Shown here piece after piece: positions 5,549-18,005 of a stretch of DNA of 18,055 nucleotides. The position numbers and the translations under genes were made by a program. Position 1 is the first letter of the stretch, and the number at the start of each line of letters is the position of its first letter. Under the pieces are notes generated by a model. That model made no database searches, was not told the origin of the DNA, and saw nothing but the letters and a program-made list of their open reading frames with translations. Source of the DNA: a virus; UHGV virus genome UHGV-0106651. The stretch is one strand, 5' to 3'.

Positions 5549-7321
5549 ATGACCATCACCACAGACACCACTCTTTTACACGACCCGCGTCGTCAGGCGG
5601 CGCTGCTGTACTGGCAGGGGTTTTCCGTGCCGCAGATTGCCGCCATGTTGCAGATGAAACGCCCGACGGTGCAGAGCTGGAAACAGCGCGACGGCTGGGA
5701 CAGCGTTGCTCCCATCAGCCGTGTCGAAATGAGTCTGGAAGCGCGGCTGACCCAGCTCATCATAAAACCGCAGAAAACAGGCGGTGACTTCAAGGAAATT
5801 GACCTGCTCGGACGCCAGATTGAACGACTGGCACGGGTAAACCGCTACAACCAGACCGGCAACGAGGCAGACCTTAATCCGAACATCGCTAACCGCAACA
5901 AAGGCGGGCGGCGCAAACCGAAAAAGAATTTTTTCAGCGACGAGGCTATCGAAAAGCTGGAGCAGATTTTCTTTGAGCAGTCTTTCGAATATCAGTTGCA
6001 CTGGTATCGCGCCGGGCTTGAGCACCGCATCCGCGATATCCTGAAATCCCGCCAGATTGGCGCGACGTTTTATTTTTCCCGCGAGGCGCTGCTGCGCGCC
6101 CTGAAAACCGGTCATAACCAGATTTTTCTGTCGGCCAGTAAAACGCAGGCGTATGTGTTCCGCGAATACATCATCGCCTTTGCCCGGCTGGTTGACGTTG
6201 ACCTGACCGGTGACCCGATTGTCCTGGGCAATAACGGCGCAAAACTGATTTTTCTCGGCACCAACTCCAACACCGCACAGAGCCATAACGGCGACCTGTA
6301 CGTCGACGAGATTTTCTGGATCCCGAATTTTCAGGTACTGCGTAAGGTGGCATCAGGTATGGCCTCACAGAGCCACCTGCGCTCGACCTATTTCTCCACC
6401 CCGTCCACGCTGGCGCACGACGCCTACCCGTTCTGGTCGGGTGAACTGTTTAACCGGGGACGCGCCAGCGCCGCCGAACGCGTGGAAATCGACGTCAGTC
6501 ATAACGCCCTTGCCGGTGGGCTTCTCTGTGCGGACGGCCAGTGGCGACAGATTGTCACCATTGAGGACGCCCTGAAAGGTGGCTGCACGCTGTTCGACAT
6601 TGAGCAGCTCAAACGCGAAAACAGCGCCGACGATTTTAAAAACCTGTTCATGTGTGAATTTGTTGACGACAAGGCGTCGGTGTTCCCGTTCGAGGAGCTG
6701 CAACGCTGCATGGTCGACACGCTGGAAGAATGGGAAGACTATGCACCCTTTGCCGCCAATCCGTTCGGCTCCCGCCCGGTATGGATTGGTTACGACCCGT
6801 CACACCGTGGCGACAGCGCCGGATGCGTGGTACTGGCACCGCCGGTGGTGGCCGGTGGCAAATTCAGAATACTTGAGCGTCACCAGTGGAAAGGCATGGA
6901 CTTTGCCACTCAGGCTGAATCCATCCGCAAACTCACCGAAAAATATAACGTTGAATACATCGGTATTGATGCCACCGGCCTCGGTGTCGGCGTGTTCCAG
7001 CTCGTGCGCTCGTTCTATCCCGCCGCGCGCGACATCCGCTACACGCCGGAAATGAAAACCGCAATGGTGCTCAAGGCAAAAGACGTTATCCGCCGTGGCT
7101 GTCTGGAATATGACGTCAGCGCCACCGACATCACCAGCTCGTTTATGGCTATCCGCAAGACCATGACCAGCAGTGGACGCAGCGCCACCTATGAGGCCAG
7201 CCGCAGCGAGGAAGCCAGCCACGCCGACCTCGCCTGGGCGACCATGCACGCCCTGTTAAATGAGCCACTCACCGCCGGTATCAGCACCCCGCTGACATCC
7301 ACCATTCTGGAGTTTTACTGA
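5549..7321 (+). CDS. P: Terminase large (ATPase) subunit gpP, 590 aa
   Basis: Start at ATG 5549 (MTITTDTTLL) with GAGGT ribosome-binding site 5 nt upstream. 590 aa; stop overlaps the Q start (TGATG). Confidence 0.9.
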   Translation: MTITTDTTLLHDPRRQAALLYWQGFSVPQIAAMLQMKRPTVQSWKQRDGWDSVAPISRVEMSLEARLTQLIIKPQKTGGDFKEIDLLGRQIERLARVNRYNQTGNEADLNPNIANRNKGGRRKPKKNFFSDEAIEKLEQIFFEQSFEYQLHWYRAGLEHRIRDILKSRQIGATFYFSREALLRALKTGHNQIFLSASKTQAYVFREYIIAFARLVDVDLTGDPIVLGNNGAKLIFLGTNSNTAQSHNGDLYVDEIFWIPNFQVLRKVASGMASQSHLRSTYFSTPSTLAHDAYPFWSGELFNRGRASAAERVEIDVSHNALAGGLLCADGQWRQIVTIEDALKGGCTLFDIEQLKRENSADDFKNLFMCEFVDDKASVFPFEELQRCMVDTLEEWEDYAPFAANPFGSRPVWIGYDPSHRGDSAGCVVLAPPVVAGGKFRILERHQWKGMDFATQAESIRKLTEKYNVEYIGIDATGLGVGVFQLVRSFYPAARDIRYTPEMKTAMVLKAKDVIRRGCLEYDVSATDITSSFMAIRKTMTSSGRSATYEASRSEEASHADLAWATMHALLNEPLTAGISTPLTSTILEFY

Positions 7322-8349
7322 TGAGCAAGAAAAAAGGGAAAACACCGCAACCTGCGGCAAAAACAATGACCGCCAGCACCCCGAAAATGGAGGCATTCAC
7401 CTTTGGTGAGCCGGTGCCGGTACTCGACCGCCGTGACATTCTGGATTACGTCGAATGCATCAGTAACGGCAGATGGTATGAGCCGCCGGTCAGCTTTACC
7501 GGGCTGGCAAAAAGCCTGCGTGCTGCCGTGCATCACAGCTCCCCGATTTACGTCAAACGTAATATTCTGGCTTCAACGTTTATCCCGCACCCGTGGCTTT
7601 CCCAGCAGGATTTCAGCCGCTTTGTGCTGGATTTTCTGGTGTTCGGTAATGCGTTTCTGGAAAAGCGTTACAGCACCACCGGTAAGGTCATCAGACTGGA
7701 AACCTCACCGGCAAAATATACCCGTCGTGGCGTGGAGGAGGATGTTTACTGGTGGGTGCCGTCCTTCAACGAGCCGACACCTTTTACGCCCGGCTCCGTG
7801 TTTCACCTGCTGGAGCCCGATATTAATCAGGAGCTGTACGGCCTGCCGGAATATCTCAGCGCCCTCAACTCTGCCTGGCTGAATGAGTCGGCCACGCTGT
7901 TCCGCCGCAAGTATTACGAAAACGGCGCTCATGCCGGATACATCATGTACGTCACTGATGCCGTGCAGGATCGCAACGATATCGAAATGCTCCGCGAAAA
8001 CATGGTGAAGTCGAAAGGCCGCAATAACTTTAAAAATCTGTTTCTCTATGCCCCACAGGGGAAAGCCGACGGCATTAAAATTATCCCGCTCAGTGAAGTG
8101 GCGACGAAGGACGATTTTTTTAATATCAAAAAAGCCAGCGCCGCTGACCTGCTGGACGCGCACCGCATCCCCTTTCAGTTGATGGGTGGCAAGCCGGAGA
8201 ACGTCGGGTCGCTGGGTGATATTGAGAAAGTGGCAAAGGTCTTTGTCCGCAATGAACTTATCCCGTTACAGGACAGGATCCGCGAGATAAACGGCTGGCT
8301 TAGCACAGAGGTTATTCAATTCAAAAATTACTCTTTAGACACCAATTAG
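7321..8349 (+). CDS. Q: Portal protein gpQ, 342 aa
   Basis: 342-aa product immediately downstream of P on the same strand, ending at the edge of the AT-rich cargo, as expected for the cos-proximal portal gene. Confidence 0.9.
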   Translation: MSKKKGKTPQPAAKTMTASTPKMEAFTFGEPVPVLDRRDILDYVECISNGRWYEPPVSFTGLAKSLRAAVHHSSPIYVKRNILASTFIPHPWLSQQDFSRFVLDFLVFGNAFLEKRYSTTGKVIRLETSPAKYTRRGVEEDVYWWVPSFNEPTPFTPGSVFHLLEPDINQELYGLPEYLSALNSAWLNESATLFRRKYYENGAHAGYIMYVTDAVQDRNDIEMLRENMVKSKGRNNFKNLFLYAPQGKADGIKIIPLSEVATKDDFFNIKKASAADLLDAHRIPFQLMGGKPENVGSLGDIEKVAKVFVRNELIPLQDRIREINGWLSTEVIQFKNYSLDTN

Positions 8350-8395
8350 CCCTAGTGATTATACGATAATTAGCCCTAGTATTATCTAGGGCTAA
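8346..8395. repeat. Three copies of TTAGCCCTAG (two direct, one inverted) forming a 10-bp perfect stem-loop; likely bidirectional terminator between convergent Q and the cargo operon
   Basis: TTAGCCCTAG at 8346-8355 (overlapping the Q stop codon) and 8370-8379; reverse complement CTAGGGCTAA at 8386-8395 with a 6-nt loop. A T-run follows on the plus strand at 8411-8417. Confidence 0.6.
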
Positions 8396-8408
8396 CAATT
8401 ATATAATT

Positions 8409-16193: not shown

Positions 16194-16455
16194 CGAGACC
16201 TAACCACATCAACCAGCCGTCACGAATCTCTTTAGGGCGGCTTTCATAAGCCAGTTTTAGTCCGTTATTCCATGCCGGAAGGTATACCCAATATTCACCA
16301 GCACGCCCCGATACTGACTGAGGGTCAGTAATCTCAATAACTGGTAATTTCCCTTTCTCAATCATGCCCCTAACAGCTCTTGGAGTTTTACCAATGAGTT
16401 TTGCAAACTCCTGATAAGGCACGGCATCAGTCACGCTTACAAGCTGTCTATTCAT
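16180..16455 (-). CDS. cox: Cox (excisionase and transcriptional regulator of the lysis-lysogeny switch), 91 aa
   Basis: 91 aa, with a C-terminal two-thirds (GRAGEYWVYLPAWNNGLKLAYESRPKEIRDGWLMWLGLGEPR) matching remembered P2 Cox. AAGGGAGAA ribosome-binding site upstream. Confidence 0.85.
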   Translation of the reverse strand: MNRQLVSVTDAVPYQEFAKLIGKTPRAVRGMIEKGKLPVIEITDPQSVSGRAGEYWVYLPAWNNGLKLAYESRPKEIRDGWLMWLGLGEPR

Positions 16456-16576
16456 CTGCTACGATTCTCCCTTAGTGCTTCTAATGGCTCCTAATGGCTA
16501 ATTATTGCCTAAAAGGATAACTCCAGAAGCACAACATTTCACACTATCAGCAAGAAATTACGCAATCGGAGTAATT
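16456..16576. promoter_or_regulatory. Immunity switch region: divergent early (cox-ward) and repressor (C-ward) promoters with tandem direct repeats as candidate operators
   Basis: Intergenic region between divergent cox and C. Direct repeat CTAATGGCT at 16481-16489 and 16491-16499. Confidence 0.55.
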
Positions 16577-16876
16577 ATGTCAATAGACGTTTCGGAGAAG
16601 TTGAAGCTAATCCGTGAATCTGAAAGGTTAAACCGTAAAGAATTCAGTGAATTAACTGGTGTAGCCTACAGCTCACTTTCGAGCTATGAGAGCCGGTCAA
16701 AAAACGCTGGAGTTGAAGCCATAATGAAGGTCTTACAACATCCTAGATTTACTAAATATACTTTGTGGTTCATGACTGATCAGGTAGCTCCAGAAGCCGG
16801 GCAAATTGCGCCCGCTCTCGCACACTTTGGGCAAAACGAAACAACGTCGCCCCACTCCGGTCAAAAGACTGGTTAA
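16577..16876 (+). CDS. C: Immunity repressor C, 99 aa
   Basis: Start at ATG 16577 (MSIDVSEKLKLIRESERLNRKEF) with GGAG ribosome-binding site. The C-terminal half (FTKYTLWFMTDQVAPEAGQIAPALAHFGQNETTSPHSGQKTG) matches remembered P2 C; the N-terminal DNA-binding half differs. Confidence 0.85.
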   Translation: MSIDVSEKLKLIRESERLNRKEFSELTGVAYSSLSSYESRSKNAGVEAIMKVLQHPRFTKYTLWFMTDQVAPEAGQIAPALAHFGQNETTSPHSGQKTG

Positions 16877-16991
16877 CAATTTATCGTGAATATATTCATC
16901 ACAAGTGCCTACTATTGGTGGCTAAATTTCAGCCACCACGAAAAAAGCTATTAGTAGTAGCAAAAAAAAGTACCACTCGGAGGGTTTTCTG

Positions 16992-18005
16992 ATGGCAATC
17001 AAAAAACTCGATGATGGTCGATATGAAGTGGACATCCGCCCTACTGGACGTAACGGAAAACGCATCCGTAGGAAGTTTGATAAGAAAAGCGAAGCTGTCG
17101 CTTTCGAAAAATACACGTTGTACAACCACCACAATAAAGAATGGCTATCAAAACCAACAGACAAACGACGTCTGTCGGAACTGACACAGATCTGGTGGGA
17201 TTTAAAGGGTAAACACGAAGAGCATGGGAAATCTAATCTTGGAAAAATTGAAATCTTCACAAAAATAACGAATGACCCATGCGCATTTCAAATCACGAAA
17301 TCCCTTATCAGCCAGTACTGCGCCACCCGAAGAAGTCAGGGTATTAAACCTTCGAGTATCAATCGTGATTTAACATGTATTAGCGGCATGTTTACAGCCC
17401 TGATTGAAGCGGAGTTATTCTTTGGTGAGCACCCTATCAGAGGGACAAAGAGGCTTAAGGAGGAAAAACCAGAAACAGGCTATCTCACACAGGAAGAAAT
17501 TGCCTTACTGCTTGCAGCACTTGACGGCGACAATAAAAAGATTGCGATTCTTTGCCTGAGTACAGGAGCACGTTGGGGAGAAGCAGCTCGTTTGAAAGCA
17601 GAAAATATCATCCATAACCGCGTCACGTTTGTTAAAACGAAAACAAACAAACCACGCACCGTCCCGATCTCAGAGGCTGTTGCCAAAATGATCGCGGATA
17701 ACAAACGAGGTTTTTTATTCCCTGATGCTGATTACCCTCGCTTCAGACGAACAATGAAAGCAATAAAACCGGATTTGCCAATGGGGCAAGCCACACATGC
17801 ACTAAGGCACAGCTTTGCCACTCATTTCATGATTAATGGAGGAAGTATTATCACGCTACAACGGATACTAGGTCACACGCGGATTGAGCAAACTATGGTT
17901 TACGCTCATTTTGCGCCAGAGTACCTTCAGGACGCCATTTCTCTTAATCCGCTAAGAGGTGGTACTGAGGCCGAGAGTGTCCACACAGTGTCCACAGTAG
18001 AGTAA
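16992..18005 (+). CDS. int: Tyrosine integrase, 337 aa
   Basis: 337 aa with the tyrosine-recombinase catalytic region (HALRHSFATH ... LGHTRIEQTMVYAHF). Same length and position as P2 Int. Confidence 0.9.
   Translation: MAIKKLDDGRYEVDIRPTGRNGKRIRRKFDKKSEAVAFEKYTLYNHHNKEWLSKPTDKRRLSELTQIWWDLKGKHEEHGKSNLGKIEIFTKITNDPCAFQITKSLISQYCATRRSQGIKPSSINRDLTCISGMFTALIEAELFFGEHPIRGTKRLKEEKPETGYLTQEEIALLLAALDGDNKKIAILCLSTGARWGEAARLKAENIIHNRVTFVKTKTNKPRTVPISEAVAKMIADNKRGFLFPDADYPRFRRTMKAIKPDLPMGQATHALRHSFATHFMINGGSIITLQRILGHTRIEQTMVYAHFAPEYLQDAISLNPLRGGTEAESVHTVSTVE

Follow-up and report, generated by a model that had tools for sequence, protein, structure and literature searches.

A conserved reading frame without a start codon appears to bridge the repressor and integrase genes of P2-like phages

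The spacer between the repressor gene C and the integrase gene int of P2-like phages very probably evolves under protein-coding selection in the −1 frame relative to C, as judged by comparative sequence analysis. We consider it reasonably probable (about 0.6) that this frame is translated, from the TGG at 16828 where the folded part of C ends, and that translation of int is coupled to it via a UGAUG overlap and a hairpin over the int start (the TIR hairpin). The frame is open and under purifying selection at the amino-acid level, its length is constrained, its stop overlaps the int start, and the TIR hairpin shows covariation. From these features we infer actual translation of the frame, coupling of int to it and a route of ribosome entry. 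The junction would then be a conserved out-of-frame bridge without a start codon, leading from the repressor gene to the integrase gene.

Results

The C–int locus

The window, by which we mean the whole 18,055-nt stretch of viral DNA analysed (UHGV virus genome UHGV-0106651), is 99.7% identical to Escherichia phage vB_EcoM-720R8 and 95–97% identical to phage P2 from mid-C through int, which confirms the P2-type C–int junction recognized in the initial annotation. The lysogeny switch of a P2-like phage consists of cox, the C repressor and int. According to the list of open reading frames, cox lies on the minus strand (16455–16180) and the C immunity repressor gene on the plus strand (16538–16876, stop codon TAA 16874–16876); int, which encodes a tyrosine integrase of 337 aa, occupies 16992–18005 on the plus strand, also by comparison with P2. 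The 115-nt spacer from the C stop to the int start is 97% identical to that of P2, in which int is co-transcribed with C from Pc.

The C product matches Pfam HTH_3 and PHROG 147 (transcriptional regulator, E 2e-43), and its homologue in vB_EcoM-720R8 is annotated as immunity repressor. Its N-terminal part is heteroimmune relative to P2 and its C-terminal part is P2-like. A mosaic junction lies inside C at about 16740–16750, and the upstream HTH part, the operators and cox are of another immunity type; past this junction the DNA is 95% P2, starting at about C codon 58. The C tail, the −1 frame and int thus all lie on one side of the recombination point and form a single module.

The junction was found at an identity of at least 95% in 755 of 5,426 complete E. 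coli genomes, where only an HTH protein and an integrase are annotated, and also in many other Enterobacterales. The GenBank record of P2 carries no annotation between C and int. A search of Rfam in E-value mode over 16400–17200 returned only noise, and a promoter and terminator scan called no site within the C–int spacer. On the minus strand, a terminator-like hairpin with a T-run (17154–17178) lies antisense in the 5′ part of int; it may be due to chance, as three terminator-like sites were found versus 1.9 expected.

The −1 frame across the spacer

In the window, the plus-strand frame at −1 relative to C extends uninterrupted, stop to stop, over 16780–16992. It overlaps the last 31 codons of C, then covers the entire C–int spacer, and its TGA (16990–16992) overlaps the int start codon in the sequence UGAUG (16990–16994). 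The frame was followed through 85 distinct C–int junctions, of which 78 come from one-genome-per-species bacterial assemblies and the others are phage records and the window itself. The spacer is open in the −1 frame at every one of the 85 junctions, while about 15 would be predicted by shuffles; the corresponding counts are 15 for frame 0, 5 for frame +1 and 5–28 for the minus-strand frames, numbers that also dispose of a minus-strand gene in the spacer. The first base of the −1 stop is found at just three places relative to the int AUG, namely −2 (UGAUG), +1 (AUGA) or +8, the stop of the last class being the TAA in AT TAA G at int codons 3–4. Not one of the 21 distinct spacer lengths, which range from 63 to 145 nt, is 2 mod 3, the class in which the −1 frame would be fused to int; fifteen are 0 mod 3 and the other six 1 mod 3.

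The substitutions are those of a coding sequence. The third codon position of the −1 frame is the substitution peak in every length class (for example, 220/156/525 at the three positions in the 69-nt class), and pN/pS (Nei–Gojobori), calculated over sequence pairs that are not phylogenetically independent, is 0.22–0.49 for the −1 frame in six classes versus 0.78–1.68 for the other two frames. Relatives with 115-nt spacers keep the motif ..Y-(I/M)-H-x-K-C-L-L-L-V-x-K-(F/Y)...R-R-(V/A)-F-stop through mostly synonymous changes; between P2 and one of them (L096) all four changes in K-C-L-L-L-V are synonymous (CTA>CTG, CTA>TTA, TTG>TTA, GTG>GTT). The C-terminal residues of the −1 peptide vary from one length class to another, since the SD and AUG of int determine them. 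The spacer had been taken for a non-coding stretch; with an open −1 frame and coding-type evolution, that description no longer fits. Of the marks of a protein-coding gene, the open frame, triplet indels and purifying selection are present, and an own start codon with RBS is missing.

The peptide itself has no match among Pfam or PHROG families, and searches of 5.8 billion and of 1.84 billion proteins brought up no genuine homologue. A profile search of the 5.8-billion-protein collection gave just two indel-containing JGI ORFs, in one of which the C-terminal part of C is fused in-frame to the −1 peptide, and an exhaustive phmmer search gave spurious repeat proteins only. The frame is annotated neither in P2 nor in RefSeq E. 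coli genomes nor in protein collections, and the literature that was searched contains no description of a C–int ORF or frameshift. In several length classes the peptides carry C-x2-C-x4-C patterns, such as CSKCTKENC, CDKCTVTTC and CSRCKLKNC (the peptides concerned are those of L095, L100, L108–L112, L145–L146, L155, L004, L132, L156, L164 and L127), and P2-type relatives have H/C pairs (HHKC ... HxC). If the peptide is made, these patterns hint at a small metal-binding tail.

The signal in the −1 frame could in principle reflect some other periodic constraint, or be the relic of an ancestral, longer C, the spacer being functionally non-coding. The scarcity of start codons, the lack of a conserved slippery site (both described below) and the lack of homologues would agree with this explanation. 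Yet the constraint is ongoing within each of the six classes, the C tail lacks a consensus RNA structure, and openness in 85/85 junctions together with triplet indels and third-position bias is hard to obtain without translation; we regard a non-coding spacer as improbable.

Overlap of the −1 frame with the C tail

Where the −1 frame runs through the end of C, the synonymous sites of C itself are affected. Among pairs of sequences with the same amino acid, the share using the same codon is 0.2–0.6 along C until about 20 codons before the stop; it then jumps (CTC 0.96, CAC 1.0, NNT 0.98, GGG 1.0) and is high at several later codons, so that synonymous sites of C are near-invariant from codon −21/−19 to the stop. 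In the window this constraint is seen at the plus-strand block CTC GCA CAC TTT GGG C (16817–16832), which encodes L81–G85 of C in P2 numbering. NNT-GGG-C is present in 78 of 79 standard C tails. The T of NNT gives TGG (Trp) in the −1 frame, where a synonymous C would suit the C protein equally; among the universally conserved codons of the −1 frame, TGG 16828–16830 comes first. Five lineages in which C stops 6–8 codons early still have the −1 frame (..L-R-x-x-N-W-L-S-V-Y..) open and conserved.

The C tail yielded no consensus RNA structure, and the synonymous invariance is not explained by one. P2 has no equivalent of the long-range CCGGC/GCCGG pairing that had been proposed for the Wphi class, and this pairing was dropped.

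The place where the constraint begins fits a puzzle already in the literature. Residues 86–99 of P2 C are unseen in the crystal and are fully flexible by NMR even on DNA, the protein being folded up to G85, and the last nine residues are dispensable for repression; the conservation of this tail surprised the authors, who asked what its purpose might be (PMC2995052, PMC4752584). G85, the end of folded C, is encoded by the GGG codon of NNT-GGG-C. Overlap with a second constrained frame would account for a tail that is disordered and dispensable and nevertheless conserved, and would answer the question that the structural work had raised.

A covarying hairpin over the int start

The start of int lies in a two-part plus-strand hairpin (about 16975–17016). 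The inner helix (16982–16987/17004–17009) pairs the 3′ half of the SD (GGAGGG, 16979–16984) and the spacer bases with int codons 4–6, and the outer helix (about 16975–16979/17012–17016) joins int codons 7–9 to the bases immediately upstream of the SD; the AUG is at the top. The same fold was obtained for all 70 distinct int TIRs (mean z −2.4). In an alignment of 60 sequences 88.6% of the cells are paired, versus 30–60% when the partners are slid. Five of the 11 pairs change on both sides, and the 32 compensatory cells compare with 9.4 in shuffles, none of 500 shuffles reaching that number. Compensation is seen, for example, as GGGC/GCUC versus GGGU/ACUC, and as swaps of whole helices (GACAGCU/AGCUGCU, GGGCGC/GCGCUU). 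Two int homologues without a C-type repressor upstream (L106 and L141) keep the SD and the int start region and have no bridging frame.

The initial annotation had proposed an mRNA structure that limits int expression. A conserved structure able to do so does exist; it is located over the SD and AUG and is not the 8-bp hairpin that had been put forward.

Having passed through the 5′ arm of the TIR hairpin, the −1 frame ends at the int AUG or shortly beyond it, an arrangement that is classical for translational coupling. Ribosomes moving in this frame would be expected to melt the hairpin that holds the SD and AUG of int and, by terminating on the AUG, could restart at int, the output of Int then being a small and fixed fraction of the translation of the C operon. 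A few P2-type prophages (L013, L074 and L093) have A7 in place of the A8 run at 16962–16969, hence a spacer of 114 nt, and their −1 stop moves 20 nt into int, off the AUG. They may be natural coupling-defective variants, or mere cases of homopolymer length variation.

The 12-bp palindrome

Two elements within the spacer had been singled out in the initial annotation, and we compared both with chance expectation and with their counterparts in relatives. The first is a perfect 12-bp palindrome, TGAATATATTCA, of single occurrence and without strand assignment. It exists as described but occupies 16887–16898, one base upstream of the 16888–16899 given for it, and begins 10 nt, not 12 nt, after the TAA of C (16874–16876). 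Dinucleotide shuffles contain on average 5.1 palindromes of this length per 18 kb versus two in the window, and a 115-nt spacer would contain one with a probability of 0.03. Since six matches suffice for such a palindrome, and 18 kb of sequence should hold about five, it does not go beyond chance. Substitutions break it in 5 of 80 P2-type IMG/VR loci (T16887C in four, A16890G in one), and in relatives with spacers of the same length the homologous 12-mer is self-complementary at just 2–4 of 12 positions. By inspection, it bears a loose resemblance to a CRP half-site or to a wrongly spaced ARG box. In the −1 frame it reads (CG)T GAA TAT ATT CA(T), R-E-Y-I-H. The palindrome is best seen as arising by accident from the codons GAA TAT ATT C (E-Y-I), and its proposed role as the site of a dimeric protein has no support, given its chance-level occurrence, its breaks in 5/80 loci and its non-palindromic counterparts.

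The second 12-bp palindrome of the window, at 8397, is part of a region (8344–8408) in which AATTAGCCCTAGT is also present as a direct copy at 8344, together with a 10-bp hairpin, TTAGCCCTAG-TATTA(T)-CTAGGGCTAA, at 8370–8393, between the convergent ORFs 7321–8349(+) and 8993–8409(−). This region resembles a bidirectional terminator or a repeat element.

The 8-bp hairpin and the folding of the spacer

The second element, a plus-strand stem-loop formed by TGGTGGCT (16916–16923) and AGCCACCA (16931–16938), was reproduced at exactly the same coordinates, with its 8-bp stem and 7-nt loop, and has a dG of −12.3 kcal/mol. The stem is G+C-rich (five G–C pairs) and lacks a U-tract on either strand, being followed by CGAAAAAAGC; the remark that this is no simple terminator agrees with the scan. 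Perfect 8-bp hairpins with loops of 3–10 nt are represented in the window by 8 matches in 5 places versus 2.4 expected, and the chance of one within a 115-nt spacer is 0.012, which makes the hairpin mildly unusual. In the −1 frame it reads (T)TG GTG GCT AAA TTT CAG CCA CCA, L-V-A-K-F-Q-P-P, the two arms encoding L-V-A and Q-P-P.

In the 80 P2-type IMG/VR loci (Int at least 99% identical) the hairpin is invariant, in spacers so nearly identical that they hold too little variation for covariation. The nearest relatives outside this set, from Citrobacter, Buttiauxella, Klebsiella, Trabulsiella and others, have Int proteins 75–90% identical and spacers that are also 115 nt long and align with the window without gaps. 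The hairpin is absent in L096, L101, L102, L104 and L002, where the homologous 29-mer has a dG of 0 to −1.5 versus −13. The initial annotation had looked to conservation of both elements across P2-like spacers and had counted its lack in relatives against its own proposal; such conservation fails outside the P2 lineage, and the hairpin is missing from close relatives whose spacers have the same length.

The minimum free energy (MFE) structure of the window spacer is a 15-bp helix with four G–U pairs (16909–16923/16946–16960), in which an outer complementarity on the plus strand, CTACTA (16909–16914)/TAGTAG (16952–16957), takes part in a fold spanning 16909–16960 and which competes with the 8-bp hairpin. 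It needs the window-specific T16948, a position occupied by G in P2 and in all 80 IMG/VR loci; in the P2 spacer the 8-bp hairpin is part of the MFE structure. T16948 turns R to L in the −1 peptide. P2-type spacers fold better than shuffles (z −3.3 to −3.7), and members of the Wphi class (z −1 to −4.7) retain a hairpin by means of G–U pairing and a double change, C>U/G>A. Roughly one lineage in three has a hairpin of unusual stability at some place in the spacer body. The other two thirds, the nearest P2 relatives included, have no excess spacer structure (z about 0), the mean being −0.9. A hairpin in the spacer body is lineage-specific and was discarded as a universal feature. The 8-bp hairpin is a real and stable RNA hairpin of the P2 lineage only, and it is not the conserved control element.

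Three roles for the hairpin in a P2-lineage phage can be weighed against these data. The one originally suggested, with the palindrome as operator of a dimeric DNA-binding protein and the hairpin as an attenuator-like structure limiting int from within a non-coding spacer, is the least credible and in our judgement very unlikely. Both elements are identical in P2, and the hairpin combines stability, the lack of a U-tract and invariance in the 80 loci with the z-scores of P2-type spacers just given; but the palindrome is at chance level, broken in five loci and palindromic in no relative, the hairpin is missing in the nearest relatives with spacers of the same length, and the spacer evolves like a coding sequence.

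Alternatively, the hairpin might be a barrier to mRNA decay or a processing element, such that after upstream A/U-rich cleavage or 3′ decay the C message would be protected and int lost, leaving C in large excess over Int. Its stability, its lack of a U-tract and its position shortly after the end of C would suit this role, and the third of lineages with a stable spacer hairpin, as well as the maintenance of one in the Wphi class, point the same way. Against it, two thirds of lineages, with the nearest P2 relatives among them, lack excess structure, and the open frame, the mod-3 rule and the pN/pS values would all go unexplained; we hold this role to be unlikely.

Finally, the hairpin might be the RNA site at which P2 Int binds its own mRNA, the autoregulation having been reported in 1994. 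Int autoregulation of this kind is cited in the literature, where the citing sentence presents P2 int as an example of a viral protein that binds its own mRNA, and the hairpin, which is confined to the P2 Int lineage, does not vary within it. It is, however, lacking beside Int relatives of 80–90% identity, it does not resemble the two copies of GTGTCCACA that form the arm sites for Int where int ends, and the universally conserved TIR hairpin would be the more obvious operator, all of which makes this role quite unlikely.

With the spacer read as a translated −1 frame, the hairpin lies inside that frame and would at most modulate the transit of ribosomes or the stability of the mRNA. It may slow −1-frame ribosomes, protect the C message or bind Int.

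Entry into the −1 frame

The −1 frame is poor in start codons. ATG, GTG and TTG are all missing from it in 45 of the 85 loci, where 7.5 would be expected, and ATG is missing in 77. In the window it has no ATG, and its sole GTG/TTG codons, TTG 16915 and GTG 16918, are downstream of conserved codons. Independent initiation at a conserved start was rejected as a general mechanism, given that start codons are mostly missing. An ordinary independent gene is unlikely because start codons are rare and the TTG and GTG of the window lie 3′ of codons that are already coding-like. The codon ATT 16894 is ATG in L096, L097 and L098 and ATA in L102 and L104; it too is downstream of codons already evolving as coding.

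With most members lacking a start codon, a −1 shift of ribosomes translating the C tail becomes the leading idea. No slippery heptamer or tetramer is conserved at a homologous place of the overlap across all 85 loci. A_AAG at codon −3 (16864–16867 in the window) is found in about 37 of 85, that is, in the P2 type and some other classes, and 26 of 85 are without any Z_ZZN site. Candidate routes are a shift of a non-canonical type at NNU-GGG, which is invariant; diffuse frameshifting at a low level throughout the open stretch, of the kind reported for the MS2 lysis gene; lineage-specific sites; and non-AUG initiation, for example at ATT 16894. A bypass, in which ribosomes would hop from the terminal GGU-UAA of C to the GGU in the int SD, was set aside, as it leaves the amino-acid-level selection across the gap unexplained.

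P2-type spacers have two canonical slippery heptamers in the frame of the −1 ORF, A_AAA_AAG (16941–16947) and A_AAA_AAA (16962–16968), the latter separated by about 6 nt from the int TIR hairpin downstream of it. Ribosomes slipping by −1 at A_AAA_AAA would arrive in the int frame, whose open stretch extends from 16925 to the int ATG, and the product would be an N-terminally extended Int. Both heptamers are unconserved outside the P2 type and may simply reflect a Lys-rich tail.

A broader proposal, which we make tentatively and regard as possible rather than probable, is that in all P2-type temperate phages with a C-family repressor a startless −1 extension is entered by a non-canonical −1 shift at NNU-GGG, where the folded domain of C gives way to its disordered tail, yielding a minor C-X trans-frame protein with a His/Cys-rich tail and delivering ribosomes to the masked int start, with Int made as a small fraction of C.

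Discussion

The features found at the C–int junction resemble those of several known systems and coincide fully with none of them. Yu, Barreiro & Haggard-Ljungquist reportedly showed in 1994 that Int is made from the Pc C–int transcript and regulates itself through its own mRNA. That system and ours share the phage lineage, the transcript and the control of int after transcription; to our knowledge, the 1994 work includes neither a frame across the spacer nor a covarying hairpin over the int start.

Translational coupling, as in many operons and in the MS2 coat–replicase pair, has in common with the junction an overlap of the UGAUG kind and an SD and AUG held in a conserved hairpin. Both signs of coupling were found here, the −1 stop being at or next to the int start in the 85 junctions and the SD and AUG being occluded by conserved structure. 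The upstream partner differs: it is an unannotated, startless frame and not C, which stops 115 nt earlier.

For the lysis gene of MS2/f2, according to Kastelein et al. in 1982, expression is said to need out-of-frame ribosomes from the coat gene that terminate beside the lysis start. Here as there, a downstream start that is hard to reach would be served by the few ribosomes that leave their frame and end near it. In MS2/f2, however, the out-of-frame stretch is short and its peptide unconserved, whereas the C–int frame is 38–70 codons long, is under selection at the amino-acid level and ends exactly on the int AUG.

Cassettes for −1 frameshifting (dnaX, IS911, the G/GT tail chaperones of phages) likewise have a conserved frame without a start that overlaps the 3′ end of an upstream ORF, and such a startless −1 ORF does overlap the 3′ end of C in frame 0. 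The corresponding trans-frame product would be an extended C with a predicted length of about 135–140 aa. In contrast to these cassettes, no homologously placed X_XXY_YYZ or Z_ZZN was found at the junction, nor, over the C tail, a consensus structure that might act as a stimulator, and its most invariant sequence, NNU-GGG-C, is not a known slippery motif. Rho-independent terminators and attenuators share with the P2-lineage hairpin a G+C-rich stem between two co-transcribed genes, but the hairpin has no U-tract, lies inside a conserved frame and is itself unconserved in relatives. The defining properties of a terminator (a U-tract), an operator (conservation) and a canonical frameshift cassette (a conserved slippery site) are all wanting at the junction.

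P2 is a textbook temperate phage, and the low level of Int from its constitutively transcribed repressor operon has so far been only partly explained. The locus is common, yet the frame is annotated in none of the records and collections examined. If this conserved frame between C and int is indeed translated, it would provide a concrete mechanism, in which Int is dosed by translational coupling; and if it is entered by frameshifting without a known slippery motif, this would matter for recoding biology and for gene finders.
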